Source: Escherichia coli (lineage in GTDB: Bacteria > Pseudomonadota > Gammaproteobacteria > Enterobacterales > Enterobacteriaceae). Taken from it: a stretch of DNA of 64,000 nt. Positions 28,355-62,679 of the stretch are shown piece by piece. Each line of letters begins with the position of its first letter. The first letter of the stretch is position 1. The notes beneath the pieces are model-generated. The model saw only the letters and a program-made list of their open reading frames with translations, had not been told where the DNA came from and did not search any database. The position numbers were made by a program, and so were the translations under genes. Where the stretch lies: the NCBI RefSeq assembly GCF_024223415.1, contig NZ_CP100500.1. One strand, given 5' to 3'.

Positions 28355-28364
28355 GCTCAGTTCC

Positions 28365-28622: not shown

Positions 28623-28627
28623 GTATA

Positions 28628-36958: not shown

Positions 36959-37839
36959 GGATACCCCCTGATTACCGCCTGCCCTTATTCCCCGGGAGAC
37001 TGAGAACAGGCTGAGATATAAGTATATTTATATAATATTATATTTCGGATTATTCGCAGAATACTGAAAAAACCGGTCGGGTCAACCGCAGGAAAACAGA
37101 AAGAGCCTGTAATAACGCATAGAAACGATATTTAAAACCAGAACAACCATCAAAAACAGAACATAAAGTCACAAAAACCGTCAAAAACGACCAGGTACTG
37201 CATTTTTAACACCTTTTTTAAATTTTGGTATCTTTACAAAAAACACCACCTGAAAATCATTTATTTAATTAAATAAAGTAAATTGCTTAGCCTGATAAAT
37301 ATTGTTCTGCAACACTCCGGTTCAGGCAGAATGTATTTTCATGGCTTACCCATTCAGGCGTAAATGCGATATTCCGCACATGACAGAGACCACACAAAGA
37401 AAAACAGGCGCAGACAGCCGGATACAGGATAAATTAACACTTCACAATCCGGCATTATTACGCTACAACATTCACGGGCAACTGCCCTTGTAACGAAAAC
37501 TTCCTTAATTTGGGTATTTGTGTGCCGTACGTCTGTGGTGTACGGCTTTTTTTCATTTTTTTATAATTTCTATAAATAAAGATATAATCAATACGTATAT
37601 ACCGTCGTATAAGATCCTTCTTCACCTTTCATTAAAAAGATCCGGAACAAAACAGACGATGAGATTGTGGTACTACCAGATTTACACCCTTACTCCGGAT
37701 AATTCACAAATCCTGAAATTACGACCTTCCTCCCGTTGCCGGACTGAAACAATATGCAGACACTCTGACGGACATGTCAGCAATGCACTCGCTCTCTGCT
37801 GTACAGGTATTACACCATACTTCACCAGGAGGTCTGTTC

Positions 37840-43395: not shown

Positions 43396-44391
43396 TCAGT
43401 GGCTGATTTTTTTCAGCTGTTCTTCACTCAGCCCCGTAATTTTCATGATTGTCTGGAAACCCATCCCTTCAGCCAGCATATTACGCGCGGTTTCCAGTTT
43501 GCCTTCCAGTTGTCCTTCGAGTCGACCTTCGGCACGGCCTTCCATTCTGCCTTCCATTCTGCCTTCCAGCTTACCACGCTCCATACCCTGCGCCATGCCC
43601 AGCGCAATGCCTTCCTCGCGTCCGCTCTGCTTCAGTTGTTCAGCCAGTGTCATTATGTTGCCCTCGTGCTGTGGCAGCCGCTCCGCCAGCGTCTGCAAAA
43701 ACCTTACCGTCACATGTTCACTGCCGTTCAGCAGATAGTGGAACAGAACCTGCGCCAGCTCTTCATTCAGCGAAGTCTGTATCAGCTGAACCAGCCTGTC
43801 CATCTGCAGCATGATGTCGCGGCTGCGGCTGTGTTTCATCAGCAGCGTCAGTGCCCCCATACGACGGTGCTGCATTATTTCATCGTCATCCAGTACCGTC
43901 ACGTCCACCAGGTGGAACGGTCTGGTGTAGATTTTAGCAGCAAGTTCCGGATTTCTGAAACACTCCAGCCAGTTCATGCTGTACGGGTACGGACTCCGCT
44001 CACCGTGGTAGAATAACAGCGGGATCACCAGCGGCAGCTCATGGTGCTGTTCAAAGTGACGCTGCATCGCCGCCACCGCATATCTGAGCATCCTGAACGC
44101 CATAAACGCGTTTTCCGTGCTCTGGTGTTCCGCGAGGCAATAAATATACCCCTCCTCACCGCTGACGGTCTTCATGCTGAACAGCGCATCGCACGCATAC
44201 TGTTTCAGATCCTGGTCCACAAAGGTACAGGGCTCCAGCCGCAGCGTTGACAGATCACACAGCTGCCGGTATTCCGCCGGAAGATGCAGTTCAACAAAAT
44301 CACGGGCCACCTCTGCGGAGGCCATAAACGCCCTGAAGGCAGCATCATGCGGCGTGGGGGTATTTTTCTCTTTCCTGCTGCTCACCGTCAT
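43396..44391 (-). CDS. Rpn-family recombination-promoting nuclease / putative transposase (YhgA-like)
   Basis: 331 aa; PD-(D/E)xK-like N-terminal region; C-terminal tandem GRMEG/GRAEG/GRLEG/GQLEG repeats. Confidence 0.75.
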   Translation of the reverse strand: MTVSSRKEKNTPTPHDAAFRAFMASAEVARDFVELHLPAEYRQLCDLSTLRLEPCTFVDQDLKQYACDALFSMKTVSGEEGYIYCLAEHQSTENAFMAFRMLRYAVAAMQRHFEQHHELPLVIPLLFYHGERSPYPYSMNWLECFRNPELAAKIYTRPFHLVDVTVLDDDEIMQHRRMGALTLLMKHSRSRDIMLQMDRLVQLIQTSLNEELAQVLFHYLLNGSEHVTVRFLQTLAERLPQHEGNIMTLAEQLKQSGREEGIALGMAQGMERGKLEGRMEGRMEGRAEGRLEGQLEGKLETARNMLAEGMGFQTIMKITGLSEEQLKKISH

Positions 44392-46154: not shown

Positions 46155-46724
46155 TCAGCCCCGACTGCAGCCGAAATTACGTTCACCGGTGCCACAGGCT
46201 TTGGTATGCTCCTTCGCCAGATAGTCAGCCCGTTCCAGTAGCTGCTGAAAGCCGGCGTCATCATCACGCGTCAGCCACAGTGCGGGATGTTCCGGAAAGG
46301 TCGCCAGCGTGGCATGGTATCCGGCATCCACACCCAGGGCACTGCACCACGCCTGTTTAATCATCCCGGCCAGTGACCCCGGAACGCGGTAATCGCCGGC
46401 ACGGCACCAGGTATCCCGGTTGACCAGCAACAGCAGGTGATAATGTTTTTTACCTTTACGCTCCCCGAACTCCCGGGCCCAGGCGTAATGCAGGGTTGTG
46501 GGATGTACGCGTTTACCTTCACGGCGCCTGCGTTTCTGGTAAGCGTAAATTCGGGCTTTCAGGGCATTGACGAAGCGGGATATCACCGCAGCATCGGTCT
46601 CTGCGGGGTGCTCCGGCAGACGCAGATCCACCTGGAGCGCTGTCAGGCGGGGATGCACCGCCAGTGCCTGCTGCACCGTCTCACGGATACGCTTCTGCCA
46701 GAAGCTGTTGTACTTGTGTATCAT
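46155..46724 (-). CDS. YagK/YfjJ-family (inovirus Gp2-like, putative HUH-type) protein
   Basis: Motifs HPRLTALQVDLRLPEH and KKHYHLLLLVNRD. Confidence 0.65.
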   Translation of the reverse strand: MIHKYNSFWQKRIRETVQQALAVHPRLTALQVDLRLPEHPAETDAAVISRFVNALKARIYAYQKRRRREGKRVHPTTLHYAWAREFGERKGKKHYHLLLLVNRDTWCRAGDYRVPGSLAGMIKQAWCSALGVDAGYHATLATFPEHPALWLTRDDDAGFQQLLERADYLAKEHTKACGTGERNFGCSRG

Positions 46725-47167
46725 GGTTGAATCTCCTCCGTGACTCACAGACGTTACTTAAGGAAGAAGATGAGCAACAGGCTACACGTACGATAAAAGA
46801 CATTTGGGTCATGAATACACGATCTGGATGGACGACATAAAGGTGATGATCTGCTCAAACCAACCAGCGTTTATGATCGATGCGACAGACAGAAGGAATG
46901 AACTACTACAATAAATAAAATCTGTCGCTGTGTGGCAAGGAAGATTTTCTTCAGGAGTGCTGGCTTATTGGGATTTTTAACACAATTTAGAGTGAGTTCA
47001 ATCAGCCACAAATCTGGATTCCTATGTCCGGATTTTTACCACAATCCCCTTATTGATTTTTATTAATCATTCACAATCTGTGATCTAGCTCGATTGCGAT
47101 TTGTATTTGACTTAATATAATCACCATGATTGTATTAAATCAAATTATAACAACAGGCGTAAAAACC

Positions 47168-48121
47168 ATGAACATTAAAAAATCAATAGAACGAGTACCC
47201 GGCGGTATGATGGTTGTACCACTGGTGATTGGCGCCATTATCAATACCTTTTCACCACAAGTGCTGGAGATCGGCGGGTTCACCACCGCGTTGTTCAAAA
47301 ACGGCGCTGCTCCTCTGATTGGTGCCTTCCTGCTCTGTATGGGAGCAGGGATCAGCGTGAAAGCCGCACCTCGGGCGTTGTTTCAGGGGGGGGCAATAAC
47401 CCTGACCAAACTGCTTGTCGCCATTGCGATTGGCCTAGGTGTTGAGCATCTGTTCGGTCAGGAAGGTATCTTCGGATTGAGCGGCGTGGCAATCATTGCG
47501 GCAATGAGTAACTCAAACGGCGGACTTTACGCGGCGCTAGTGGGAGAGTTTGGCAACGAACGCGATGTCGGCGCTATTTCAATTCTATCTCTGAATGATG
47601 GACCGTTCTTTACAATGATCGCGCTGGGAGCTGCTGGTATGGCGAACATACCAATCATAGCGCTGGTCGCAGTGCTGATTCCGCTGGTGATAGGGATGCT
47701 CCTCGGTAACCTTGATCCCAACATGCGTGACTTCCTGACCAAAGGTGGACCACTATTGATCCCGTTCTTCGCGTTTGCGCTGGGTGCGGGGATCAACCTT
47801 GAAATGCTTCTGCAGGGTGGGCTGGCTGGGATTCTGCTTGGCGTACTGACCACCTTTATCGGCGGTTTCTTTAACATTCGCGCCGACCGTCTGGCTGGGG
47901 GAACCGGTATTGCCGGCGCGGCGGCTTCCAGCACAGCCGGAAATGCGGTAGCGACGCCGCTGGCGATTGCTCAGGCAGACCCTTCGCTGGCTGAAGTGGT
48001 TACCTCTGCCGCACCGCTGATTGCCGCATCGGTGATCACAACCGCAATTCTGACGCCAGTCCTAACCTCTCGGGTCGCCAAAAATCGGGCGCGTCAGATC
48101 TCTGAGGAGAAAAAAGTATGA
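47168..48121 (+). CDS. 2-keto-3-deoxygluconate permease (KdgT family)
   Basis: MNIKKSIERVPGGMMVVPLVIGAIINTF...; polytopic membrane protein. Confidence 0.8.
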   Translation: MNIKKSIERVPGGMMVVPLVIGAIINTFSPQVLEIGGFTTALFKNGAAPLIGAFLLCMGAGISVKAAPRALFQGGAITLTKLLVAIAIGLGVEHLFGQEGIFGLSGVAIIAAMSNSNGGLYAALVGEFGNERDVGAISILSLNDGPFFTMIALGAAGMANIPIIALVAVLIPLVIGMLLGNLDPNMRDFLTKGGPLLIPFFAFALGAGINLEMLLQGGLAGILLGVLTTFIGGFFNIRADRLAGGTGIAGAAASSTAGNAVATPLAIAQADPSLAEVVTSAAPLIAASVITTAILTPVLTSRVAKNRARQISEEKKV

Positions 48122-49389
48122 AGATGATCGTTATCGCCGACGACTTTACGGGTTCTAACGATACTGGCGTGCAGTTGGCGAAGAAAGGAGCTCGCACGGA
48201 AGTTTTGCTAACGCCGGAGCAAAAGCCTTCGCGTCGCACGGATGTACTGGTGCTCAACACTGAAAGTCGTGCGGTGCCGGCCGCACAGGCAGCGAAAGCG
48301 GTAACGCATGCTCTGGCTCCCTGGTGCAAAGGAGAGATGCTCCCGCTGGTATACAAGAAAATCGACTCCACATTTCGCGGCAACGTCGGCGCGGAAGTGA
48401 CGGCAGCGATGCGAGCCGCTAAACGGACTCTGGCAGTGATCGCTGCGGCGATCCCAGCTGCAGGACGCACAACCCGTAACGGATTATGCCTGGTCAACGG
48501 TACGCCTCTACTGGAAACCGAGTTTGCCAGCGATCCGAAAACGCCGGTTTTCTCCTCGCGCATTGCGGAACTGATCGCGCTACAAAGCGATATCCCGGTA
48601 CATGACGTGTCGCTTGATGACGTGCGACGCGGACAGCTCAGCGCCCTTCTTAAAGCTTTTGCAGCCCAGGGGGAATGCATGGTGGTAGTCGATGCGGTGG
48701 AAGATCACGACCTGTCTCTGATTACCCAGGCTATTTGTGAACAGGCTACATTTCCTCTACTGGTCGGTGCGGCAGGACTGGCGAATGCGCTACCGGTCAG
48801 AATGTTCATGCAGGAGAAGAAGGCTCTGCCAGTGCTAGTAGTTGCAGGATCGATGAGCGAAGCCACCCGGCGGCAGGTTGAAAAAGCGCTCACCCAGGCA
48901 CACGCCAACGTGGTGGACATTGATGTCTCACGACTGATTTCCTCGAAGGCCGAACAGGAAATAGCCTCTGTGGTGGAACAGGCCAGCGTGTTGCTCAGTC
49001 ACCAGAAACACACGATTCTTCGCACCAGCCGTAGTGCGGATGACCGACTGATGATCGATGCTCTGTGTACTGAAGCAGGCGTAGGCCGCCAACAGCTTGG
49101 CGAGATGCTCAGCCAATGTCTAGGGATCATTACACTGCGCATTATCGAACAGGCGCGTATTGGCGGCCTGTTCCTGACCGGAGGAGATATTGCCACTGCT
49201 GTTGCCAGTGCGCTTGGTGCTGAAGGCTATCGCATCCAGAACGAGGTCGCCCCATGCATTCCCTGCGGGATGTTTGTGAACAGCGAAATCGACGATCTTC
49301 CGGTGATCACGAAAGCTGGCGGATTCGGTTCAGACAGCACCCTTTGTGATGCACTTTATTTTATTGAGGAGATGTACAGTGGTAACTAA
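48118..49389 (+). CDS. four-carbon acid sugar kinase family protein (YgbK/OtnK-like)
   Basis: MKMIVIADDFTGSNDTGVQLAKKGARTEVLL N-terminus. Confidence 0.8.
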   Translation: MKMIVIADDFTGSNDTGVQLAKKGARTEVLLTPEQKPSRRTDVLVLNTESRAVPAAQAAKAVTHALAPWCKGEMLPLVYKKIDSTFRGNVGAEVTAAMRAAKRTLAVIAAAIPAAGRTTRNGLCLVNGTPLLETEFASDPKTPVFSSRIAELIALQSDIPVHDVSLDDVRRGQLSALLKAFAAQGECMVVVDAVEDHDLSLITQAICEQATFPLLVGAAGLANALPVRMFMQEKKALPVLVVAGSMSEATRRQVEKALTQAHANVVDIDVSRLISSKAEQEIASVVEQASVLLSHQKHTILRTSRSADDRLMIDALCTEAGVGRQQLGEMLSQCLGIITLRIIEQARIGGLFLTGGDIATAVASALGAEGYRIQNEVAPCIPCGMFVNSEIDDLPVITKAGGFGSDSTLCDALYFIEEMYSGN

Positions 49390-50362
49390 AACAATAGCGA
49401 TTACGATGGGCGATCCGGCAGGTATCGGTCCAGAAATAATTGTCAAGGCACTTTGTGAAAATGAACTTAGCGGCGCACCGCTGGTAGTGGTGGGATGCCT
49501 ACAGACCCTACAACGTTTGCAAACCAAAGGACTGGCAGAAGGAGTGACTTTTCGCGCAATTGACAATGTCACGCAGGCGCGATTTTCACAGGGCGTGATT
49601 CACGTAATCGATGAGCCGCTGGCACAGCCCCAAGCGCTGGAGCCAGGTAAAGTGCAGGCCGAGGCGGGAGATCTGGCCTACCGTTGCGTAAAACGTGCGA
49701 CGGAGTTGGCACTGAAAGGTGATGTACACGCCATCGCCACTGCGCCGCTGAATAAAGAAGCACTACATCAGGCGGGACATTATTATCCGGGACATACCGA
49801 ACTGCTGGCGACGTTGACCGGAAGCCGTGACTATGCGATGGTGCTTTACACCGACAAGCTGAAGGTGATTCACGTTTCGACCCATATTGCGTTACGCAAG
49901 TTTCTCGACACTCTCAACAGGCAACGCGTGGAGACTGTTATAGGCATCGCGGATCACTTCCTTAAGCGTATTGGCTTAGCCCAACCGCGCATCGCCGTAG
50001 CCGGGATCAATCCCCATGCAGGCGAAAACGGTCTGTTTGGCGATGAAGAAATTCGCATTGTATCGCCAGCCATTGAAAACATGAGGGCGAAAGGAACAGA
50101 CGTTTTCGGACCATGTCCACCGGATACCGTGTTTTTGCAGGCATACGAGGGTCATTATGACATGGTGGTGGCGATGTACCACGATCAGGGACATATTCCG
50201 CTCAAACTGCTTGGATTCTATGATGGCGTGAATATCACCGCCGGTCTGCCGTTTATTCGTACCTCTGCTGATCACGGGACTGCGTTTGATATTGCCTGGA
50301 CGGGCAAAGCAAAATCTGAGAGCATGGTCATATCGATTAAACTGGCAATGCAACTGGCATAA
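49379..50362 (+). CDS. PdxA-family NAD-dependent dehydrogenase (4-hydroxythreonine-4-phosphate dehydrogenase-like)
   Basis: KTIAITMGDPAGIGPEI...HTELLA...DHGTAFDIAWTGKA; GTG start with GAGGAG Shine-Dalgarno assumed. Confidence 0.8.
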   Translation: MVTKTIAITMGDPAGIGPEIIVKALCENELSGAPLVVVGCLQTLQRLQTKGLAEGVTFRAIDNVTQARFSQGVIHVIDEPLAQPQALEPGKVQAEAGDLAYRCVKRATELALKGDVHAIATAPLNKEALHQAGHYYPGHTELLATLTGSRDYAMVLYTDKLKVIHVSTHIALRKFLDTLNRQRVETVIGIADHFLKRIGLAQPRIAVAGINPHAGENGLFGDEEIRIVSPAIENMRAKGTDVFGPCPPDTVFLQAYEGHYDMVVAMYHDQGHIPLKLLGFYDGVNITAGLPFIRTSADHGTAFDIAWTGKAKSESMVISIKLAMQLA

Positions 50363-50371
50363 TTTCCTGTT

Positions 50372-51142
50372 ATGAAAGGACAACACCGTCTGGATAAAAT
50401 AGTGGCGTATTTGAAAAATCATACGCTGGCGACCGTGGAACAACTTGTAGATGTGGTAGAAGCATCGCCCGCGACGATCCGACGTGATCTGATCAAACTG
50501 AATAAACAGGGTGTGATCAGCCGCAGCCACGGAGGTGTTGCCCTGCGGCGTTTTGAACCCGCGCAACCCACAACCAATGAAAAGCAATTACGATCGCCTG
50601 CGGAAAAGCGGGCGATCGCGCGTTTTGCAGCCTCAATAGTACAGGCCGGCGACGCAGTGGTTTTGGACGCCGGCACCACCATGCTGGAGTTGGCTAAATG
50701 CCTGACTCATTTGCCACTCAGGGTGATCACGGTCGATCTGCATATCGCCCTGTTTTTGTCCGAATTTCCCCAGATTGAAGTCACCATTGTGGGTGGTCGT
50801 ATTGATGAAAGCAGTCAGTCCTGTATCGGCGACTTTGGTCGCAAAATGTTACGTAGCGTCTACCCTGATATCGCATTCATGAGCTGTAACACCTGGAGTA
50901 TGGAAAAAGGTGTCACAACTCCGACGGAGGACAAAGCAGGACTCAAGCAGGAGATTATCGCTAACGCCCAACGTAAGGTTCTACTGGCCGACAGCAGCAA
51001 ATATGGCGCGCATTCGCTGTTCAACGTAACGCCGCTGAGCAGTTTTACCGATGTTGTGACCGATGTGCATCTGCCACGCCCTGTCCAGGCAGAGCTGGAA
51101 GCCCACTCCATTGCCCTTACGCTAGTCCAGCCTGGATTTTAA
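50372..51142 (+). CDS. DeoR-family transcriptional regulator
   Basis: N-terminal helix-turn-helix ([34 protein letters not shown]) plus sugar-phosphate-binding domain. Confidence 0.85.
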
Positions 51143-51429
51143 AGGGACCGTTCACAGTTATCAGGACGGACGGCATGTTGCGCCAACAGTCTTACCTGTG
51201 AACTGTATAGTGAACGTCTTTATGCTTATGGCAGTAAATCCACCAGTTGCAAACATCCCCCGCTGACCGGGGGAAAGTATTCATGTACCTGTTGTTGATT
51301 TACTGATGTCCATATCGGACATTCAGCATGATACGCGTTGTCATCCGGAACACGACTCTCTGTCGTATAAATATACCCCCGGATGAACGCTGTTTCGGAT
51401 GTGCGTACCTGGGGGCCTCAGGTGACAGC

Positions 51430-52449
51430 TCAGACGGTGGTCATATCAATAACGATTCTGCCGTTGATTTTTCCTGCGCGCATGCGGCCGAATACAGAGT
51501 TGATATTTTCCAGTGGCTCCGTGGTGACCTCTGCATGAACCTTGTGCTGACCGGTAAAGAAGAGAGCTTCCTGCAAATCCTTACGGGTCCCTACAATAGA
51601 ACCCCTCACAGTTATACCATCAAGCACCATATCGAATATCGACAAATCAAATTTCCCCGGCGGCAGACCGTTCAGTACCATCGTTCCGCCACGACGCATC
51701 ATACCTGTGGCCTGAGAAAATGCGGCTGGTGACACTGCCGTGACCAGTACACCATGTGCACCACCAGTTTCTGCATGAATGCGCTGTACCGGATTTTCAC
51801 GCACGGCGTTCACCACAACAGAGGCTCCAAGTCTGCAGGCCAGCTCCAGTTTACTGTCATCCACATCAACAGCCGCAACATTCATCCCCATCGCGGCGGC
51901 ATACTGAACGGCCAGATGTCCCAGTCCTCCGACACCGGAAATCACCACCCATTCCCCCGGGCGGGCTTCCGTCATTTTCAGTCCTTTGTAAACAGTCACG
52001 CCGGCGCAAAGCACGGGGGCTATATGGTGAAAATCAACATTATCCGGAAGAAGTCCGACATAATTCGCATCCGCAAGACAGTATTCCGCAAACGTGCCAT
52101 TCACCGAATAACCAGCATTTTGTTGGGAATGACACAGGGTTTCCCAGCCCCCCAGGCAATGCTCACAGTAGCCGCATGCAGAATACAGCCAGGGAACCCC
52201 TACCCGATCGCCTTCCCTGATATGTTTTACGCCGGCACCCACGGCCACCACGTGACCTACCCCTTCATGTCCCGGAATAAACGGCGGACGTGGTTTGACT
52301 GGCCAGTCACCATCTGCAGCATGAAGATCGGTATGGCATACCCCCGTGGCTGCTATTCTGACCAGAATTTTTCCGGGTTCAATGGCCGGCACGGTAACTT
52401 CATCAATAACCAGCGGTTTTCCAAATTCTGTGACAATAGCGGCTTTCAT
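51430..52449 (-). CDS. zinc-dependent alcohol dehydrogenase (AdhP-like)
   Basis: [21 protein letters not shown]...GHEGVGHV...; zinc and GxGxxG motifs. Confidence 0.88.
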
Positions 52450-52494
52450 GGTTTTGAGTTGCATTTTTGATTCCTCTGTTAGCGAAAGACAAAA

Positions 52495-54015
52495 TCAGAA
52501 CAGACCAGCCGGTGATGTGTCATAACTGACCAGAATATTTTTAACCTGCTGATAGTGGCTGAGAGCCAGCTTATGTGTTTCCCTGCCAATACCAGAATTT
52601 TTATACCCTCCGAATGCGGCATGTGCCGGGTAATAATGGTAACAGTTTGTCCATATACGCCCGGCCTGGATCCCTTTTCCCATTCTCCATGCCCGGTTTA
52701 TATCTGTCGTCCACACACCCGCGCCAAGTCCGTATTCCGTATCGTTGGCGATACTGAGCGCCTCTTCTTCTGTCCTGAACGTGGTTATGCCAATGACAGG
52801 TCCGAAGATTTCCTCCCTGAAACATCGCATCTGATTATGGCCTTTGATCAGGGTCGGCTGAATGTAGAAGCCATTCTGTAAATGTCCCTCGTGGATGACA
52901 GGTGCACCACCGGTGAGTATTTCTCCGCCCTCATCCCTTGCTATGCGGATCCAGGAAAGGATCCTGTCATACTGTTCCCGGGAAGCCTGTGCACCTATCA
53001 TTGTGTCTGTATCAAACGGATCTCCACGGCGGATATTTTCGATTTTATGCAGAACCCGCTCCACAAAAGCCTGAAAGATCGTTTCCTGAACCAGGATACG
53101 TGAGGGACAGGTACAGACCTCCCCCTGATTAAAGAAGCCAAGTACAGCACCTTCAACCGCCTTTTCAAGGTAGCTGTCATCTCCGTTCATCACATCGTCA
53201 AAGAAAATATTGGGGGATTTACCGCCCAGTTCGACTGTACTGGGGATAATATTTTCAGCTGCGCAGGAGAGAATATGCCGCCCGACGGGCGTGGAGCCTG
53301 TGAATGCAATTTTATCGATACGACGGCTGCGGGCCAGAGCTTCACCAGCTTCCTGCCCGAAACCATGAACAACGTTAAGCACACCCGGCGGTAAAAGATC
53401 ACCGATTAATTCCAGCAGTACGCAAATACCCAGAGGGGTCTGTTCTGCGGGCTTCAGTACCACACAGTTTCCTGCCGCAAGTGCCGGTGCCAGTTTCCAG
53501 GCCGCCATCAGCAAAGGAAAATTCCATGGAATAATCTGACCGACCACTCCCACAGGTTCATAGATGTGCCATGCCATCATATCCCTGCCCACCTCTGCTG
53601 CACTGCCTTCCTGCGCCCGGAGACAGCCCGCAAAATAACGGAAGTGGTCAACTGCCAGTGGAATATCGGCCGCGAGTGTTTCGCGTACCGGCTTGCCGTT
53701 ATCCCAGGTTTCTGTCAGTGCCAGGATTTCTGTGTTCGCTTCAATACGATCGGCAATGGCAAGCAGTATATTCGCCCGCTCCGTGACCGGTGTTGCCCCC
53801 CATCGGGCTCTGGCCTCATGTGCCGCAGTGAGCGCGCTTTCAATATCCATCTCACCCGAACGTGGGAATTCAGCAATATTTTCTCCGGTAACAGGAGTGG
53901 TGCTGGTGAACCATCGCCCGCCGACAGGATCAACAAACTGACCGTTGATAAAGTTACCGTAGCGTTTTTTGAATGACACTTTTGAGCCGGGTAATCCCGG
54001 ATGTATGTATTTCAT
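52495..54015 (-). CDS. NAD-dependent aldehyde dehydrogenase (AldB/AcoD-like)
   Basis: 506 aa with catalytic ELGGKSP and GQ...C motifs. Confidence 0.88.
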   Translation of the reverse strand: MKYIHPGLPGSKVSFKKRYGNFINGQFVDPVGGRWFTSTTPVTGENIAEFPRSGEMDIESALTAAHEARARWGATPVTERANILLAIADRIEANTEILALTETWDNGKPVRETLAADIPLAVDHFRYFAGCLRAQEGSAAEVGRDMMAWHIYEPVGVVGQIIPWNFPLLMAAWKLAPALAAGNCVVLKPAEQTPLGICVLLELIGDLLPPGVLNVVHGFGQEAGEALARSRRIDKIAFTGSTPVGRHILSCAAENIIPSTVELGGKSPNIFFDDVMNGDDSYLEKAVEGAVLGFFNQGEVCTCPSRILVQETIFQAFVERVLHKIENIRRGDPFDTDTMIGAQASREQYDRILSWIRIARDEGGEILTGGAPVIHEGHLQNGFYIQPTLIKGHNQMRCFREEIFGPVIGITTFRTEEEALSIANDTEYGLGAGVWTTDINRAWRMGKGIQAGRIWTNCYHYYPAHAAFGGYKNSGIGRETHKLALSHYQQVKNILVSYDTSPAGLF

Positions 54016-54081
54016 GACATTCTCCCTGAGCGAAATTCAGTGTACGTTCATGCAGGAACAAAACTGTTGCAGATAACCTTA

Positions 54082-54097
54082 AGCAACACCCATGCCA
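54082..54097 (-). promoter_or_regulatory. sigma-54 (-24/-12) promoter upstream of the aldB-adhP operon
   Basis: Minus strand reads TGGCATGGGTGTTGCT (GG and GC spaced as in TGGCAC-N5-TTGCA), about 65 nt upstream of the aldB start. Confidence 0.7.
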
Positions 54098-54256
54098 CCA
54101 AGTTGTTACACACAGTTAACAACAACAAAAACAGCCTGTTAGCCCAAAAAACAGACAACCGAAAAAGAATCACCACAGGAAAATGTGAAGCAAATAAAAC
54201 ATTTTCGATACACAAATGATACAATCATGCAACACAACTGTTGCAAGGATTGAATT

Positions 54257-56017
54257 ATGTTACGTAAGAGATCTGCAACTGAGTATCAGAAAGAAAAAGC
54301 CACGCTTCCGGTACTCCTGAGTGCATCATGGCAACGATGTACCGGCTATCATCTCGAAAGAGACAGTGCGCCCTCAGTATGTGTTGAGCATGACCAGTTA
54401 CGGGATCTCCGGTCGCACAACGGCTGGTCAGATATCCTTAAACAACAGTTCCCTGAATCAGGCTCTGATTTTTTCAGTAAATCACTGGTACTGGTTATTG
54501 CTGATGCATCAGGCGTGATCCTTGACACCTGCGGTAACAGGAAATTTCTGAATAAAGCCGAAGGTTTTTTCCTTTCCCCCGGTCATATCTGGACCGAACA
54601 ACACTACGGCACAAATGCCATAGGTACAGCGCTGGCTGTACAGCAGGCATGTGAAGTGAGGGGGAGTGAACACTGGCTCAACAGAAATTCAGGACTCTGT
54701 TGTTCGGCATACCCGCTATTTTCACCTGAAGGTTATCTTGCCGGTATCCTGGATTTATCGTCACCGGCAGATTTACCATTCCGTGATGCACCGGTGATTA
54801 TCAGGCGGTTTGTTCAGCAAACCGAATATCTCTGGACAACAAAACGACTCAATGCAGAGAGATATCTGTTGCATCTCCGCCGGGAAAACAACGCAGACAT
54901 CAGTGACAGTAGTGAATTTTTACTGGTCATTGAAGGTGATGTGATTGTTGGTGCCAACAGGCTCGCTGTGAATGAATTTGGCCTTCTTCCACCTTATGAT
55001 TCCGTCACTCTGGATACTCTCTTTACCGGGGGTAACAGACAGTCTGATTTTCTGGAATCGTGCAGCGGACAACGTTATCTGCAGCGACGCACCCGCCCCC
55101 ACAGAGCTGCCGTGAATCTGTCACCCCGCCTCCGTTTTCCATCGCGGCGTGAAGCGGACAACGAAAAAAAGGAAAAAGCACAGCAGTTAATCAACCACGG
55201 AATATCGGTCTGTATTACAGGAGAAACCGGAACGGGGAAAGAATATCTGGCGCGGGAGCTTCACCGTAACAGTTGCCGGAAAAACGGCAACTTTGTTGCA
55301 ATTAACTGTGCTGCCCTGCCGGAACACCTGACAGAATCAGAGCTTTTCGGATACGCTCCGGGAGCATTTACCGGCGCGAATTCCAGAGGTTATCCCGGGA
55401 AAATCAGGGAAGCCAGTGGCGGGATCCTGTATCTTGATGAAATCGGCGATATGCCGGCAACACTTCAGACACGGTTATTACGTGTACTGCAGGACAAAAA
55501 AGTGATTCCTCTGGGTTCAAACACGCCTGTGGACGTTGACTTCGTACTGATATCAGCCACGCACCGTGATCTGGATAAGATGTGTGCAGAAGGGACTTTT
55601 CGGGATGATCTGTTATACCGAATACGGGAATTTCACCTGCATCTTCAGCCACTTCGGGAAAGAAGCGACCTGGGTAAACTGATAGTTAAACTCTGGGAAG
55701 AATCTGAACAGGAGATGAAAAAAACCGTCATGCTGGGCAGTGAAATTATTGAAGATTTAAAACGACATTCATGGCCGGGGAATGTACGTCAGTTGCTGAA
55801 TGTGCTCAGAGTTCTGATGGCGCTGGCACGACCTGGAGGAAGAATCACTCCAGGTGATCTCAGCGTAGTGTCTGAAGATATTTGTCATATCCATAATACC
55901 GTAAAGATAGTGACCGAAAGAAAAATAGTGGATGAGGCCGGAGGAAACATCAGCAGAGCGGCAAAAATGCTGGGTATTTCCCGAAGCACATTATACAGAC
56001 GACTGAAAAGTCTGTAA
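54257..56017 (+). CDS. sigma-54-dependent transcriptional activator (AcoR-like)
   Basis: AAA+ Walker A GETGTGKE, GAFTGA motif (YAPGAFTGA), C-terminal helix-turn-helix. Confidence 0.88.
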   Translation: MLRKRSATEYQKEKATLPVLLSASWQRCTGYHLERDSAPSVCVEHDQLRDLRSHNGWSDILKQQFPESGSDFFSKSLVLVIADASGVILDTCGNRKFLNKAEGFFLSPGHIWTEQHYGTNAIGTALAVQQACEVRGSEHWLNRNSGLCCSAYPLFSPEGYLAGILDLSSPADLPFRDAPVIIRRFVQQTEYLWTTKRLNAERYLLHLRRENNADISDSSEFLLVIEGDVIVGANRLAVNEFGLLPPYDSVTLDTLFTGGNRQSDFLESCSGQRYLQRRTRPHRAAVNLSPRLRFPSRREADNEKKEKAQQLINHGISVCITGETGTGKEYLARELHRNSCRKNGNFVAINCAALPEHLTESELFGYAPGAFTGANSRGYPGKIREASGGILYLDEIGDMPATLQTRLLRVLQDKKVIPLGSNTPVDVDFVLISATHRDLDKMCAEGTFRDDLLYRIREFHLHLQPLRERSDLGKLIVKLWEESEQEMKKTVMLGSEIIEDLKRHSWPGNVRQLLNVLRVLMALARPGGRITPGDLSVVSEDICHIHNTVKIVTERKIVDEAGGNISRAAKMLGISRSTLYRRLKSL

Positions 56018-56337
56018 GAACAACGTGCTGCCGGATACGTTATTTGCGGGAAATTCCTGTTCTGTAAAATATATCTCAGGTTGTTAAAACCCTGTCATTC
56101 TTCCATGTGAACAGTATGAGAAACATCACACGGGTATATTCACGGCCGGCACAACCACAGACATAAATGATATCCTGCGCATCATTTCCTGATGCTCTGA
56201 TACTGAGTTAACCACTTATTTACATCTGACGATAAATTGTTTATTCATTCTTCAGGGTAAATAAAGCCATAAGGAGTGTGATATTCACGATACGCTGAAA
56301 ATCGGTGAACTGAAAAATGGCAGTTACAGGGGGAAAT

Positions 56338-57822
56338 ATGAGTGATTTAATTAATTTTATTAATGGCATAATATGGAGCCCGGCACTGGTCTGGCTTTGT
56401 CTTGGAACAGGCCTCTGGTTTTCTGTCAGGGGACGCTTCCTGCAGCTCCGGCATATTAAAGAAATGCGCCGTCTGATATTCCGGAGTAAACAGAATGATG
56501 CGGGCGTTTCCTCTTTTCAGGCACTCACGATGACACTGGCCGGACGGGTCGGAACCGGTAATATTGCCGGTGTTGCCACGGCTATCACCTTTGGTGGTCC
56601 CGGTGCATTATTCTGGATGTGGGTGGTGGCATTTCTCGGCGCAAGCTCAGCCTTTGTCGAATCCACACTGGGGCAAATTTATAAGGAAAAAATTAACGGA
56701 GAATACCGGGGCGGACCCGCTTTTTACATAGAAAAAGGGCTTGGGTTACGATGGTACGCATGGCTGTTTGCTGTGGTGACGGTGCTTTCCTGTGGGCTGT
56801 TATTACCCGGTGTCCAGGCGAATTCGATAGGAAGCAGCCTGAACCTTGCATTCGGGATTAGCCCCAATGTGACGGCAGCATTTATCGCCCTCCTTCTTGG
56901 ATTCATCATCTTTGGTGGTGTAAAACGGATTGCTGTATTTACCAGTACTGTCGTGCCTTTCATGGCTCTCGGCTATATCATTGTCGCGTGTGTCATTGTT
57001 GCACTTCATATTGAAAAACTTCCCGGCGTGCTCCTCCTTGTCTGGCGCTCTGCTTTTGGACTGGATGCAGGTTTTGGTGCCATTGTCGGGCTTGCCATTT
57101 CATGGGGGGTCAAACGTGGTGTCTATTCCAATGAAGCCGCTCAGGGAACCGGACCTCACGCCTCTTCCGCTGCGGCAGTGACACATCCGGTTAAACAGGG
57201 ACTGGTGCAGGCCTTTTCTGTATATATCGACACGCTTTTTGTCTGTTCAGCTACGGGATTTATGCTTCTTGTTACCGGTCTGTATAATGTTCAGGGCCCC
57301 GGTGATGTTGCCTTATATACCGGTATCGCCGGTGTGGCAGCCGGGCCCGGCTATGTGCAGACAGCCATGGAAAGTATGATGCCGGGGTTTGGTAATTATT
57401 TTGTCGCAATCGCACTGTTCTTTTTCGCATTCACCACGATTGTTGCTTACTATTATATCGCAGAAACTAACATTGCCTGGATTTGCCGTAAAACAGCACG
57501 CCCCTGGCTTATGATTGTACTGAAGATTATGCTGATGGTTTCTGCGGTATACGGTACGGTCAAAACCGCAGATATGGCATGGGGACTGGGTGATATAGGG
57601 GTTGGTATGATGGCATGGCTTAATATCATCGCTATATTGCTTATGGGAGGGACTGCGTTTAATTGCCTCAGGGACTACGAAAAACAGATGTCACAGAATG
57701 CTGACCCGGTATTTGATCCCGAACGCCTCAGTCTGCAAAATGCTGATTACTGGACAGAACACCGTGATGAAGTTAAAAAATTGAGTGAGCCCGGGCCCAC
57801 ATTCCGGACAACGTCGTCGTAA
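56338..57822 (+). CDS. alanine/glycine:cation symporter (AGCS family)
   Basis: MSDLINFINGIIWSPALVWLCLGTGLWFS...; polytopic. Confidence 0.85.
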   Translation: MSDLINFINGIIWSPALVWLCLGTGLWFSVRGRFLQLRHIKEMRRLIFRSKQNDAGVSSFQALTMTLAGRVGTGNIAGVATAITFGGPGALFWMWVVAFLGASSAFVESTLGQIYKEKINGEYRGGPAFYIEKGLGLRWYAWLFAVVTVLSCGLLLPGVQANSIGSSLNLAFGISPNVTAAFIALLLGFIIFGGVKRIAVFTSTVVPFMALGYIIVACVIVALHIEKLPGVLLLVWRSAFGLDAGFGAIVGLAISWGVKRGVYSNEAAQGTGPHASSAAAVTHPVKQGLVQAFSVYIDTLFVCSATGFMLLVTGLYNVQGPGDVALYTGIAGVAAGPGYVQTAMESMMPGFGNYFVAIALFFFAFTTIVAYYYIAETNIAWICRKTARPWLMIVLKIMLMVSAVYGTVKTADMAWGLGDIGVGMMAWLNIIAILLMGGTAFNCLRDYEKQMSQNADPVFDPERLSLQNADYWTEHRDEVKKLSEPGPTFRTTSS

Positions 57823-58096
57823 ATCAGAAACATTTTCCCGTCAGATGCCCGACGTATTCTGACGGTTAAGGGGCTGCAGGAGACGATATGCTCATTCCTG
57901 CAGCCCTGATTATTTCCCCTCCCTCCACAGGAAAAACATGCTCCCCTGTATTTTATACCAGATATTTTTATCTTTATCGTCCGGCCACCTTATGGTATAA
58001 AATCCGCAAACGGCAAGGCTGAACAGTACCTCGTTCCGGGTGGTTTGAGACTTTTCTGCCTTAGCCGTTTTCTGATCTTCAACCGTGGTATCAAAA

Positions 58097-58303
58097 ATGA
58101 AAACAAAACAGGACTGGTTATTTCAGTTACGGCGATGCTCCAGTATTGAAACCCTGGAAAAAGTTATTGAGAAAAATCATTACTGCCTGACCCCATCAGA
58201 AATGGAAACATTCAATTCAGCGGCAGATCACCGGCTTGCAGAACTTAAAATGAATAAGCTTTATGACAAAATTCCGCCGTCAGTCTGGAAATATGTTTAT
58301 TAA
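58097..58303 (+). CDS. Hha/YmoA-family nucleoid-associated modulator
   Basis: [68 protein letters not shown], closely similar to Hha. Confidence 0.85.
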
Positions 58304-58745
58304 GTCTGCGCCACATACGGGACAAATTCCCGGGGATACGTGACATATGCCGGTAACACAATCACAAATATCGCGGTTGTATCAGCAATTGTTGATACAA
58401 CGAAAAATTTGCACCTGACAGCGGGCAGAAATGAACAGGAAGAATCAAAGCACAACAACTTATTACAAAACTCCGCACTGCCATATCCTGCTTTCAGGAC
58501 CATGCTGATTTTCATGACTGTTCCGGCAGGAACAGTCATTACGCAAAAAACTCCCCGGTAAAACCATTATCTGCCCTCCTGAAAATCACTTCTTCGCAAG
58601 AGTACAACTGAGTTCAGGTATTTTGAGCTGAACACGCACTTTTTTCTGCGCCGGAAAAAATTTACGGTATTCCTCTTCCTTCAGCACTTCACCGGTATTG
58701 CGCCGCCAGATAAATGGTATGCCATCACTTTTCTGAATAACTGCA

Positions 58746-59195
58746 TTAATCTGATAACAGCTCATTTTTCTCACTTTGTTCCGGCGGCATTTCTCCTGCC
58801 CGACGCGAACACATCCAGCGACGCAGAGCCGTCAGCGTGTCTTCTTCCTGAACGCTGCAGGATTTTGGTGTGGCTGGCTGTGGAGCGGGTTGCCGGTAAC
58901 GTATCCCTGAGGCTGGCACAGACGTCACGCCCGGAGATACTGACAGGATCCGGATGGCACGGATTTTCTGACGGTGCGCATCAATCAGGTTAAGTACTTC
59001 GCTGTCAATGAACTCCCGCGCATCGCGGGTAATGAAAAGCAGAATATCGTGTGCCTCTGCCTGGCTGATGCCGAATGCACGCGCAACACAGATTTCGGTC
59101 AGCAATACTTTTTCTCTCAATCCCCACATGGCAACAGCGACATGCAGCGGAGCATGCTCAAAATCACAGACAATTCCCGGTAACATTTTTCTCAT
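58746..59195 (-). CDS. putative CaiF/GrlA-family transcriptional regulator
   Basis: 149 aa; N-terminal region PLHVAVAMWGLREKVLLTEICVARAFGISQAEAHDILLFI resembles CaiF/GrlA winged-helix proteins. Confidence 0.4.
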   Translation of the reverse strand: MRKMLPGIVCDFEHAPLHVAVAMWGLREKVLLTEICVARAFGISQAEAHDILLFITRDAREFIDSEVLNLIDAHRQKIRAIRILSVSPGVTSVPASGIRYRQPAPQPATPKSCSVQEEDTLTALRRWMCSRRAGEMPPEQSEKNELLSD

Positions 59196-59263
59196 GCCAT
59201 CATCACCACACTAATCCCGCATGACTGGTAATACTTTAACTTCACACGCCATGGACGACAATA

Positions 59264-59327
59264 TGCTGTAAAATCGCATCGTGCCGATCACTGATTCGCA
59301 TCGCATCATCCAGCACATTTACTTTTC
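59264..59327 (+). repeat. repeat copy B2 (TGCTGTAAAATCGCATCGTG...GATC...GATTCGCATCG)
   Basis: Similar to 41581..41692. Confidence 0.55.
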
Positions 59328-59538
59328 CCGGTGTTGAAAGGAAGTATTTGTGGCAGCTTGTTGAAAATACAACTCCACCGGTCAATCCCCAGGATATAAA
59401 GACAGCAACGATAATGCAGGCCAGCCCCGGAGAATAACCTGCAAGAAAAAATGATCCCCCACCCGGTATTAAGGCTGTATGGGCAGGTTAACACGGTGAT
59501 TACTGTCAGTTAATACCATCACGCCGGCCCCAAAAACC

Positions 59539-59591
59539 TGTGGGCAAGGGGATGTCGTGCGGATCACTGAGCAAATTCATCGGAATGCGCA
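59539..59591 (+). repeat. repeat copy A2 (TGTGGGCAAGGGGATG...)
   Basis: Similar to 35176..35251 but lacking one 23-bp subunit; abuts the helicase stop codon. Confidence 0.55.
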
Positions 59592-59603
59592 GCAAAGCAC
59601 TCC

Positions 59604-61955
59604 TCAGAATAACCCCCCTTCACCATCAGCCACAATCCTGTATCCCATCGCCTTATAACCCCGCTGGCGTTTATCCCACATTCTGAGCAGCACAGGATAC
59701 GCTTTATCCACAAAATCAATGATCCTGACATCGCTTTTACCGGTATACTGTCTGTGCAGACGCCCTGCATACTGCTGTAACGTCCCTTTCCATGACACCG
59801 GCATCGCCAGAATCAGCGTATCCAGCGGTGGGTGGTCAAATCCCTCACCAATAAGTTTACCGGTTGACAACAGAATGCGGGGAGAATCCTGAGGAAGCGC
59901 ATTTAACTCAGAAATCAGCATTGTACGCTTTTTTTTCGATAACCGGCCATGAAGCACAAAGGGTGACAGGTTCAGTGAATGCATTACTGATGCTATATCA
60001 TCCAGATGCTCTTTTCGTTCAGTCAGTACCAGAACTTTACGTCCCTGCGCGAATGCCTTCATGGCTTCTTCAGCTATCGCCACAGTCCTGTCATGATCAA
60101 GCGCAATTTCTCTGAAAATATCCTGGATCCCCGCATCCGATGGTAAATGTCCGGATGTAAAACGGAAACGGAGCTGCACTTCCAGATTATGCGGACTTTC
60201 CTTCGGGCTGGCCGCTGTGTGACGAAGGGCACCACAGTACATAAAAATGATGGGATGCAGACCATCCCGTCGGACAGGCGTTGCCGTCAGTCCCAAAAGA
60301 TATCTGGCATTCGTTTCCTTCAGAACAGCAGAAAATGAAAACGCTCCAGCATGATGGCACTCATCAACTATGACTTGCCCGTAATTCCTGACCACAGGTG
60401 CAACTTTGCCATGCCTGAACAGAGACTGCACAACAGCAATATCAATATTGCCAGAGGGGTTATGTTTGCCCCCTCCGATAATACCAATACCGTCACTGGT
60501 CTGCAGAAATACCCCAAGCCGCTCCTGCCATTGCTTTAATAACTCAGTCCGGTGTACCAGTACAAGTGTATTAACTCTCCGTCGTGCAATCACAGCCGCG
60601 GCGGTAACCGTCTTACCAAAAGCCGTTGGCGCACAAAGTACACCAGAATCATAACGGAGCAATACCGAAACAGCCTCTTCCTGATCCGCTCTGAGGTTTC
60701 CCGTGAACACAGCATGACATTCTGTACCTGCAAATCGTTCATCGATGATTTCTGCAGCAATATTGTTGTCACTGAGGAAGGATAATGCGCTGTCCAGACA
60801 TCCACGGGGTAACGCAATGTGTTGCGGATAATTTTCCGCACAACCTGTAACCCGGGGTTTATTCCAGACAGACATTCTCATGGCCTGAGCCTTATAAAAC
60901 ACAGGATTAGGAAACGCAGCCAGTCGAATAAGCCGGTTGGCCAGCGGCTGAGGTAATTGCGCTTTTTCGAAATAGATCTGGTTTGCCAGCGTGATTCTCA
61001 GCGGCTCAGCAACAGAAACCGTCAGTTTGTTTTCTGATGATGTTTTCCACGGCGTGCTCAGGTCTTCGTCGGTAAAGTTCACATCCAGTGGATGAATACT
61101 TCCTGTAGCCCGTAATATTGTCGGTTCTATATCCTGCACATTCATCGGGATCACCGATGCCAGGAATGCCCACTGATCAGGATAAGGCTGAAAATTCATA
61201 TCAACAAAAACACTGCCTCCCGATTCACGCGGTCTTTTTTGCAGAGGTAACGCGATGAGATTGCCGAATCCCCCTTTTGGCATGGTATCCTGATTAGGAA
61301 ATAATCGGTCATAAGAACTCAACCGCAGTTGCCGGGAACGGCTACACGTATGGCTGATAACGGCTGTCCCCAGTCGGCGTGCATCACGGGCCGAAACCCG
61401 GGAAGCAAAAAATATCCAGACATGCGCCCCCTGACGTGAGCGGGATATTTCCAGCGCTGCGGGTATCCCCAGCTCATCACAGGATCGCATGAATGCGGAT
61501 GCATCCTTCTGCCATTCAGCATCATCAAAATCAACAGCCAGAAAATAACAGGAATCGTCTTCCAGCAGCGGATATACCCCGACTGTATGGTAGCCTGCGA
61601 GATGACGGTAAATGACAGGATCGGATACAGGTAGCAACTGACGGTGTGCGCAGTCACCGCATTTTATCCCGGGCTTACCGCAGATTCCCGGCTTCCATTC
61701 GTTAGCACAGGCCGGCGAATACCCTGATTTACCACTGACCTGACTTTCCCAGCGAAGGGCCCATACATCATCACGCCCACGAAACAACCGACGAAATAAT
61801 GAAACCTTCTGTTCAGCAGATAATGCGGAAACATGATGTACAGAACGCTGCGGTTTACGTCGCCATTCAATCCCGTGAGCTTCAAGTAATGAGGCCAGAC
61901 GGGCATTTTCTGCCCTCAGTGCAGCTAATTCGTCGTTATCAGATTGACACACCAT
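59604..61955 (-). CDS. fusion protein: N-terminal archaeo-eukaryotic primase (primase-polymerase)-like domain plus C-terminal SF2 DExH helicase
   Basis: N-terminal coiled coil, Cys cluster CGKPGIKCGDCAH, AEP-like motifs FLAVDFDD and GAHVWIFF; helicase motifs APTAFGKT, VIVDECHH, GLTATP, QYAGRLHRQ. Confidence 0.8.
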   Translation of the reverse strand: MVCQSDNDELAALRAENARLASLLEAHGIEWRRKPQRSVHHVSALSAEQKVSLFRRLFRGRDDVWALRWESQVSGKSGYSPACANEWKPGICGKPGIKCGDCAHRQLLPVSDPVIYRHLAGYHTVGVYPLLEDDSCYFLAVDFDDAEWQKDASAFMRSCDELGIPAALEISRSRQGAHVWIFFASRVSARDARRLGTAVISHTCSRSRQLRLSSYDRLFPNQDTMPKGGFGNLIALPLQKRPRESGGSVFVDMNFQPYPDQWAFLASVIPMNVQDIEPTILRATGSIHPLDVNFTDEDLSTPWKTSSENKLTVSVAEPLRITLANQIYFEKAQLPQPLANRLIRLAAFPNPVFYKAQAMRMSVWNKPRVTGCAENYPQHIALPRGCLDSALSFLSDNNIAAEIIDERFAGTECHAVFTGNLRADQEEAVSVLLRYDSGVLCAPTAFGKTVTAAAVIARRRVNTLVLVHRTELLKQWQERLGVFLQTSDGIGIIGGGKHNPSGNIDIAVVQSLFRHGKVAPVVRNYGQVIVDECHHAGAFSFSAVLKETNARYLLGLTATPVRRDGLHPIIFMYCGALRHTAASPKESPHNLEVQLRFRFTSGHLPSDAGIQDIFREIALDHDRTVAIAEEAMKAFAQGRKVLVLTERKEHLDDIASVMHSLNLSPFVLHGRLSKKKRTMLISELNALPQDSPRILLSTGKLIGEGFDHPPLDTLILAMPVSWKGTLQQYAGRLHRQYTGKSDVRIIDFVDKAYPVLLRMWDKRQRGYKAMGYRIVADGEGGLF

Positions 61956-62115: not shown

Positions 62116-62679
62116 TCAGTTGTGTCGCGGTCGGCCGCGGTTACTTTTTTCAGGTAGTCTGCTACGCATCAGAATAATACCGTGTTCTTTCTGATCCTGT
62201 TTAGCCAGGTAGCTAAGGGCGTAACGTAAGTCATCTACCGCAGATTTATTACTATAGCGAATTACGTGATCAATACGCACCGGGTATTTATCTTTAGCCC
62301 GGCACAGGTGAAAATAACCATCCCCTTCCGTGATCCGCCTCCAGATATCTCCCAGCAGCCTGGATATCCGGTAAGATTTCTTGTGCCGTTGTCCATCCAG
62401 ATAGCCGATAAAATGAATATGAAGTCCCTTGTTTTGTGTATATTCCATAACCCAGTAATATCCTGCCAGAATCGTTTGGGTTTCGCTAAGTAAGCGCTGC
62501 ATCTCAATACACATACTGTGCTTACAGGAATGACCGAAACTGGGCGTGTCTTTCCTGTAGGCAAAATCAATTCTGAAAGGTAACAGTTTAGAAAAACGTT
62601 GAAACATACCTTCCATGTGTTTATTCACGTCTTTCAGAATCGTGAAATTCATTTCGTAATTGGGATTGGCATTGTACAT
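62116..62679 (-). CDS. YagK/YfjJ-family (inovirus Gp2-like, putative HUH-type) protein
   Basis: 187 aa with LLPFRIDFAYRKD and GLHIHFIGYLDG motifs. Confidence 0.65.
   Translation of the reverse strand: MYNANPNYEMNFTILKDVNKHMEGMFQRFSKLLPFRIDFAYRKDTPSFGHSCKHSMCIEMQRLLSETQTILAGYYWVMEYTQNKGLHIHFIGYLDGQRHKKSYRISRLLGDIWRRITEGDGYFHLCRAKDKYPVRIDHVIRYSNKSAVDDLRYALSYLAKQDQKEHGIILMRSRLPEKSNRGRPRHN

Follow-up and report, generated by a model that had tools for sequence, protein, structure and literature searches.

An Hha paralogue and a CaiF/GrlA-family regulator whose genes converge on a rare genomic island of Escherichia coli are probably two separate and quite ordinary regulatory units, which stand next to each other in the variable region of this island, a P4-type element linked to serW. 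The window that we analysed is a 64,000-nucleotide stretch of E. coli DNA (contig NZ_CP100500.1), and all positions given below refer to it. The initial annotation of this DNA had described two short genes and had suggested that an Hha-like modulator and a GrlA-like regulator might work as a functional pair on the cargo of the island. Between positions 58000 and 59700 we find three short genes instead of two. The hha paralogue occupies 58097–58303 on the + strand and encodes 68 aa. The regulator gene lies on the − strand at 58746–59195 (149 aa, or 146 aa when the second ATG, at 59186, is taken as the start), and a gene for a DUF1187 small protein is present on the same strand at 58586–58765 (59 aa, or 62 aa from a GTG at 58774). 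The spacing of about 450 bp and the convergent orientation that had been reported agree with the 442 bp that we measure between the hha and regulator stop codons. The space between the two genes is not empty, however, as the DUF1187 gene had been overlooked; because this gene fills part of the 442 bp, the true intergenic gap between it and hha is 282 bp (58304–58585).

The intergenic regions were examined for signals that delimit these units. A hairpin with a GC-rich stem of 13 bp and a U-rich tract behind it (57870–57906, + strand; folding energy −24.4 kcal/mol, z −2.5) is located just 3′ of the Na+/alanine symporter gene, which ends at 57822, and has the appearance of a terminator. Because this strong hairpin follows the symporter gene, hha is seen as a transcription unit of its own, and the arrangement suggests that it is monocistronic. 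Two further terminator-like hairpins lie in the 282-bp gap and thus stand between the hha unit and the regulator unit: an inverted repeat at 58376–58401, contained in a segment (58355–58425) whose RNA fold on the + strand has a z of −3.96, and an 11-bp stem on the − strand at about 58515–58540, which was also detected by RNA folding. Both are possible terminators. The promoter of the regulator gene is presumed to lie in the 408-bp region upstream of it on the − strand (59196–59603), and a simple scan detected no sigma-70 consensus promoter. Searches of Rfam found no RNA family between 57000 and 60500, and searches of PHROGs and PADLOC found no match for any of the three small genes. Antisense ORFs of 79 and 73 aa in the 282-bp gap were considered as genes and rejected, as neither has a Pfam family match.

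The product of the first unit belongs to the Hha family. Over profile positions 2–57 of 57, the 68-aa protein matches Pfam HHA (PF05321; E 9.8e-31, 106.2 bits with a cut-off of 25), and it also matches the Hha subfamily of NCBIfam (E 1.3e-35, 121.5 bits with a cut-off of 90). Both profiles support the earlier identification of an Hha/YmoA paralogue, with the correction that the start moves from 58085, an upstream in-frame GTG that would yield 72 aa, to the ATG 12 nt further on at 58097. The 68-aa start is the one used by public annotation and agrees with the N-terminus of the plasmid homologue. The protein shares 68% identity with K-12 Hha, 75% with a paralogue from a chromosomal island and 82% with a plasmid Hha. 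The gene for that plasmid Hha adjoins a gene for a type IA topoisomerase and a fragment of an H-NS gene, a neighbouring gene set that we take to be IncX-like. The locus of the closest Hha relative, with 79% nucleotide identity, has different neighbours and lies beside an Afa-type fimbrial operon; an overlapping pair of ORFs at that locus (147 and 59 aa) looks like the regulator/DUF1187 cassette by size, yet is unrelated to it. The hha allele of the window is absent from the complete RefSeq E. coli genomes, where nucleotide identity reaches 77% at best.

The paralogue retains an intact AADHRLAEL motif, and residue D44, the equivalent of D48 of Hha, is invariant when the protein is aligned with K-12 Hha and two further paralogues. 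D48 of Hha is essential for H-NS binding (PMC4519777). Based on family membership and on the conservation of this residue, we infer that D44 most likely mediates binding of the paralogue to the N-terminal domain of H-NS/StpA, and that the paralogue would strengthen the silencing of AT-rich acquired DNA in the manner of plasmid Hha and of Hha2/Hha3. As had been noted in the initial annotation, the gene has no tomB partner. A tblastn search with K-12 TomB gave no meaningful TomB-like sequence either near hha or across the window (best E 3.9). In K-12, tomB is positioned upstream of hha and ends 25 bp before it, a canonical arrangement that the hha gene of the window does not share.

Island-borne Hha paralogues, namely Hha2/Hha3, have already been described (PMC4864382, PMC6480617). 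Hha2/Hha3 of enteroaggregative E. coli 042 and plasmid Hha resemble the case studied here, in that each is an extra Hha/YmoA gene for a protein of about 68–70 aa on acquired DNA. Further points of likeness are the lack of tomB, an island that also carries flu (Ag43), and the conserved equivalent of D48. The hha gene of the window is nevertheless a distinct allele with neighbours of its own, the Na+/alanine symporter gene on one side and the operon of DUF1187 and the GrlA-like gene on the other.

The regulator was more difficult to place. It had been proposed that the N-terminal region of the 149-aa protein resembles CaiF/GrlA-type regulators, and for the single sequence this resemblance is weak. 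PF07180.17 gave 16.9 bits (E 0.0067) against a cut-off of 25, and the best match in a phmmer search of the PDB was GrlA, with an E of 0.0054; a precomputed listing gives PF07180.19 for the exact 149-aa protein with an E of at most 1e-5. A word-indexed protein search with the regulator returned the query's own cluster only. An exhaustive HMMER search gave 51 homologues, mostly 140–175 aa in length and mostly aligned over nearly their full length, and StdE-like relatives fall in this same family. The resemblance becomes strong with a family profile, which was built from 36 aligned homologues. PF07180 is matched by 34 of these 36 (best 4.8e-17), the profile reaches GrlA (4KT5 chain C) at 4.5e-17, and hhalign of the profile against K-12 CaiF gives a probability of 96.4% with an E of 1.3e-9.

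The structural prediction leads to the same family. An AlphaFold (AF2) model of the regulator, computed from the alignment of these homologues, has a mean pLDDT of 84.9, with values of at least 93 across residues 11–90, and its predicted structure comprises three helices and a β-hairpin wing. The best PDB match of the model in Foldseek is GrlA (4KT5_C; TM 0.91 on the target, rmsd 1.1 Å over 87 columns), and the next matches are TFE-alpha and MarR-type winged helices. The protein thus has a family match as well as a predicted DNA-binding fold, and the earlier proposal, which would have fallen had both been lacking, is supported on this point. The predicted winged helix-turn-helix covers residues ~15–87 and is followed by a low-complexity Pro/Ser linker at ~88–118 and by a conserved C-terminal helix, LRRWMCSRRAGE, at ~120–135. 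Both the linker and the helix are common to the family; the helix has the motif LRxWMxSRR, and profile methods do not align it with GrlA or CaiF. The regulator keeps the nearly invariant residues of the family, which are P6, P16, L17, A22, W24, F41, A48 and I55 together with R125, W127 and R131 of the C-terminal helix. The profile comparisons and the model identify the 149-aa protein as a divergent member of the CaiF/GrlA family with a predicted winged helix. By analogy with characterised members, it is most likely a transcription factor that recognises specific promoter DNA.

Comparison with the two regulators that give the family its name shows what the protein is not. GrlA, the LEE regulator whose structure was determined with GrlR (4KT5), is similar in size, has an N-terminal winged helix-turn-helix (predicted in our protein), lies on a horizontally acquired island and is encoded together with a small partner protein. 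Identity between the two is about 25%, however, and the LRxWMxSRR helix of our regulator is left unaligned. The partner of GrlA is encoded by the upstream grlR, whereas the partner here is DUF1187, whose gene is downstream and overlapping. Neither grlR nor the LEE nor ler is present in the window, the scanned ORFs of which show no LEE-type families, and no second CaiF/GrlA-family ORF was found in it. Because the regulator gene is flanked by those for an AEP-TOTE helicase and DUF1187, it is not part of a GrlR-GrlA system. CaiF, which activates the carnitine operon of E. coli K-12, is likewise a single-domain protein of ~130–150 aa with a homologous winged helix-turn-helix. The regulator is not a CaiF orthologue, as it scores 13.8 bits against a cut-off of 140 with the NCBIfam CaiF equivalog, and no cai or fix genes are located nearby.

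A further likeness is found in StdE/StdF of the Salmonella std fimbrial operon, where a CaiF/GrlA-family protein is again accompanied by an adjacent second small regulator on acquired DNA. StdE is a DNA-binding regulator that resembles GrlA/CaiF and whose regulon is pleiotropic (PMC3264584, PMC6173445). The Salmonella partner is a protein of the LuxR/GerE type encoded where a fimbrial operon ends, whereas the partner here is DUF1187 and no adhesin operon lies alongside. We also observed that most of the regulator relatives examined outside IncI2 plasmids flank surface-adhesin loci.

The DUF1187 ORF matches its Pfam family with 23.9 bits against a cut-off of 20.7 (PF06688; E 5.4e-5). Its start overlaps the 3′ end of the regulator gene by 20 nt, and because of this overlap the two genes are probably co-transcribed and translationally coupled. 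DUF1187 is not mentioned in the literature that we searched. A tblastn search detected regulator homologues on 535 plasmids, 529 of which are typed as conjugative, and those examined are IncI2. The regulator gene is directly followed by a DUF1187 gene in two IncI2 lineages, with an overlap of 8 nt in one and a separation of 11 nt in the other; between these lineages, identity is 51% for the regulator and 72% for the DUF1187 protein. The plasmid pair, represented by orf00039 of pHNSHP45 and its DUF1187 gene, has the two-gene order, the domain layout and the C-terminal RRWMCSR motif in common with the island pair. Identity between island and IncI2 proteins is 34–39% for the regulator and 34–36% for DUF1187. 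For the latter, the local alignment score is 71 as compared with 21.7±4.2 for shuffled sequences (0 of 2000 shuffles reach it), and phmmer gives 1.5e-4. A BLASTP comparison of the DUF1187 protein of the island with its IncI2 counterparts gave no match, and tblastn of the island DUF1187 against plasmids found nothing at E ≤ 0.01. These sequence comparisons are consistent with co-inheritance of the pair on the island and on IncI2 plasmids. The sites of the two pairs are different: on the plasmids the pair is located between repA and a ~30-kb same-strand block that carries EexN, a PilL-PilV type IV pilus and a VirB-type T4SS, whereas on the island it is located between the PrimPol-helicase gene and the convergent hha.

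The plasmid arrangement raises the question of whether the island pair is a plasmid-type regulator of transfer or pilus genes, which would mediate crosstalk between the island and IncI2-like conjugative plasmids, perhaps through the sensing or manipulation of a helper plasmid, and have no connection with Hha. That the IncI2 pair forms the first unit of the pilus/T4SS block, on plasmids that are nearly all conjugative, is in favour of this idea, as is the replication and mobility backbone that the island pair adjoins. We regard it as very unlikely, given that the two pairs share no more than 34–39% identity and that no T4SS, relaxase or oriT was recognised in the window. [quoted passage not shown]

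Both genes had been described as island-borne, and the surrounding DNA bears this out: they lie in a horizontally acquired island. The window represents a serW-linked island that has a tRNA-proximal CP4-type end module (DUF4942, CbtA, RadC, an antirestriction protein, DUF932 and Ag43), with several metabolic cargo blocks after it. Read in the orientation of the regulator, the gene order is P4-type integrase, an unknown protein of 608 aa, AlpA, DUF3987/YfjI, an inovirus-Gp2-like protein of 187 aa, the AEP-TOTE PrimPol-helicase, the regulator and DUF1187. Hha, the Na+/alanine symporter and a sigma-54 activator follow on the strand opposite to the regulator, and beyond these, on the regulator's strand, are aldehyde and alcohol dehydrogenases. 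DNA similarity to widespread O157-type backbones ends at about 59594, 10 bp past the helicase stop, and related backbones carry DprA, IS66 or other cargo after the helicase instead. Since the backbone similarity ends after the helicase, the three small genes are situated where the variable part begins. In 5,426 complete E. coli genomes, megablast and blastn found no copy of the hha/DUF1187/regulator segment and only the 3′ end of the helicase gene; the megablast match is limited to positions 59594–59700 of the window and occurs in 686 E. coli records. The 149-aa form of the regulator is called on 295 E. coli contigs and the 146-aa form on 210, these being two start-codon calls of one gene whose counts may overlap, and the Hha protein is found on 284 contigs.

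Whether hha and the regulator belong together can be judged from how well their adjacency is conserved. Twelve island loci were compared. A 1901-bp segment is 100% identical in seven of them, and the other five are at least 99.8% identical apart from an IS66 element. Because the loci are nearly identical, they count as a single evolutionary event and do not independently support a linkage. The IS66 element of the five loci is inserted between DUF1187 and hha, at a point that aligns to about 58463 within the 282-bp gap (one of the five contigs ends before the junction). Separation of hha from the regulator unit by 2.4–5 kb is tolerated. All 12 loci carry an intact regulator ORF of identical sequence, and hha is also present in all of the island copies examined.

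Away from this island the two genes were not found together. HMM scans detected no Hha-like ORF near 10 independent loci that carry relatives of the regulator (flanks of about 0.1 to 7 kb, and 50 kb for one plasmid) and no CaiF/GrlA-like ORF near four other Hha loci, including that of the closest Hha relative, a small sample with several short contigs in which a weak co-occurrence could be missed. A 55-kb IncI2 plasmid has no annotated hha and no Hha-like ORF in the 50 kb scanned. The nearest relatives of the two genes are also different, being a plasmid Hha for hha and IncI2 plasmid proteins for the regulator. From the loci compared, the conserved neighbour of the regulator is DUF1187, not Hha, and every line of evidence points to the proximity of hha and the regulator as a chance juxtaposition produced by mosaic assembly of the island.

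These observations bear directly on the functional pairing that had been put forward initially, in which a dedicated antagonistic pair, the Hha paralogue against the GrlA-like activator, would set the expression of island cargo. Among the genes of the island, Ag43 would be the leading candidate for a target. Several findings give the idea some appeal. Together with Ler, whose gene it activates, GrlA counteracts H-NS silencing (PMC9979310). In strain 042, one ag43 allele is modulated by Hha paralogues (PMC4864382), which also correlate with the flu-yeeR cluster (PMC6480617), and flu is carried by the island. The relative closest to the regulator, at 40% identity, is encoded 375 bp downstream of an AIDA/Ag43-like autotransporter gene, other relatives lie beside an invasin gene or beside chaperone-usher fimbriae, including a StdE/StdF-like arrangement, and hha accompanies the regulator in every island copy. 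Nevertheless, the adjacency is confined to a single clonal island, with co-occurrence at none of the 10 regulator and none of the four Hha loci, and the two genes come from different evolutionary sources and tolerate an IS66 between them. The units are, moreover, convergent and separate, and the Ag43 (flu) autotransporter gene, at 12160–15279, is about 43 kb away from them. We consider such a dedicated pair unlikely, and flu as a shared target of the Hha paralogue and the regulator would be a specific but low-probability hypothesis. A generic opposition between an H-NS co-repressor and a GrlA-like activator on island genes would be plausible.

One could also envision that the regulator/DUF1187 unit is a decaying remnant, carried by the island as a functionless passenger. 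In the IS66-bearing loci DUF1187 has a nonsense allele, E30*, and the same single mismatch is seen in all five. Furthermore, the island is clonal, so that an intact ORF says little about selection, the simple scan found no consensus promoter, and the IncI2 homologue is dispensable for fitness (PMC8053102). This explanation appears highly improbable to us, as the regulator ORF is unchanged in 12 of 12 loci, the nearly invariant residues of the family are kept, and the predicted fold is a confident one.

We therefore return to the reading that we favour, that of two ordinary units placed next to each other. The first would be the Hha paralogue, acting on silencing through H-NS as proposed above. 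The second would be the regulator/DUF1187 operon, in which the regulator, with a flexible linker between its winged helix-turn-helix and its conserved C-terminal helix, binds promoter DNA, and DUF1187, the conserved partner encoded with it, may modulate the regulator, as suggested by the analogy with GrlR-GrlA and StdF-StdE. The proximity of the two units would result from mosaic assembly, and any antagonism between them would be that of generic H-NS/Hha silencing and a specific activator.

Nothing suggests a new kind of system, since hha and the regulator belong to known families. What is mildly new is the cassette of a CaiF/GrlA-like protein and DUF1187 that is common to the island and to IncI2 plasmids. 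A bolder version holds that the regulator and DUF1187 form a portable two-protein cassette common to IncI2 conjugative plasmids and a P4-type island, with DUF1187 as a GrlR-like anti-activator or co-factor, and that it would allow crosstalk with IncI2 transfer/pilus genes or take part in a Hha-linked Ag43 switch; we view this as a long shot, quite unlikely to hold in full.

The analysis gives an identity to a protein that is annotated as hypothetical on about 500 E. coli contigs (from the two start-codon calls, whose counts may overlap), namely that of a GrlA/CaiF-family regulator with a predicted winged helix, and adds a further island-borne allele to the picture of Hha paralogues that began with Hha2/Hha3. 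IncI2 plasmids are major vectors of mcr-1. If a two-component switch were indeed common to IncI2 plasmids and islands, it would provide an experimental handle on a domain of unknown function and on the control of plasmid and island genes.

The island that holds hha, the DUF1187 gene and the gene for the 149-aa CaiF/GrlA-family regulator is linked, within the window, to a tRNA-Ser(GGA) gene (5493-5580, + strand), which we take to be serW; the 588-, 573- and 234-aa ORFs upstream of it are identified as cydD, cydC and aat. A CP4-type module (5732-19000) directly adjoins the tRNA gene and encodes DUF4942 and DUF932 proteins, a CbtA toxin, RadC, an antirestriction protein, the autotransporter Ag43 (12160-15279), an IS66 transposase and a YeeP-like GTPase. 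The island integrase is encoded past the window's right end, and the tRNA gene is therefore at the non-integrase end. CP4-6 at thrW has the same arrangement.

Toward the other end of the window, two genes on the minus strand belong to a conserved P4-type island backbone, one for a 187-aa inovirus-Gp2/YagK-like protein (62116-62679) and, following it, one for a 783-aa fusion of an AEP-TOTE PrimPol with a DEAD/ResIII helicase (59604-61955; Pfam AEP-TOTE, 5.8e-99; PADLOC "PrimPol, CAS-associated", 8.9e-134). Matches to the helicase gene's 3' end occur in 686 complete E. coli records, whose annotations call it a TOTE conflict-system protein or a helicase.

The intervening DNA includes several metabolic cargo blocks. 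The region 20404-36591 encodes an ABC transporter, biotin carboxylase and carboxyltransferase, a GntR-aminotransferase regulator and an FMN-dependent dehydrogenase, and is followed by a lactate permease gene (37774-39483). The biotin carboxylase and carboxyltransferase (urea- or 5-oxoprolinase-type) genes occupy DNA of low GC content (41-43% at 24-30 kb), and the FMN dehydrogenase gene shares 77.5% nucleotide identity with its counterpart near the closest Hha relative (locus L034). Further cargo, at 47126-57822, falls into two blocks: one comprises a KdgT-type permease, a four-carbon acid kinase-like protein (SBD_N/NBD_C), a PdxA-family dehydrogenase and a DeoR regulator, and the other a Zn-ADH, an aldehyde dehydrogenase, a sigma-54 activator (its MimR_N domain taken solely from precomputed Pfam hits) and a Na+/alanine symporter. 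Midway through the cargo as a whole, a second YagK/YfjJ (inovirus-Gp2-like) gene (46155-46748, - strand), flanked by IS21/Mu-type (41734-43269) and YhgA-like (43396-44391) transposase genes, suggests a composite island built from at least two modules.

The 282-bp convergent gap between hha and the DUF1187 gene contains two hairpins, each with an 11-bp stem, at 58376-58401 and about 58515-58540. The former is a near-perfect 26-bp palindrome, GTTGTATCAGCAATTGTTGATACAAC. Both hairpins lack a clear U tract, and they may act as terminators or as a site for protein binding. The gap is polymorphic within the island lineage, with one or two IS66 elements at a position equivalent to ~58463 (island copies L002, L003, L006 and L029); the contig of a further copy, L007, stops just short of the IS66 junction. 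The IS66-bearing loci also carry the DUF1187 nonsense mutation GAA>TAA (E30*), and the regulator is intact in loci with both changes.

Outside IncI2 plasmids, most of the regulator relatives examined (L010, L014, L020-L025) are situated at the edge of an adhesin locus, beside an Ag43-like autotransporter, an invasin, or chaperone-usher or K88-type fimbriae. At L022, the relative is accompanied by a GerE-type gene in a StdE/StdF-like pairing. These adhesin-edge positions suggest that a link to the control of surface structures is shared across the regulator's family.
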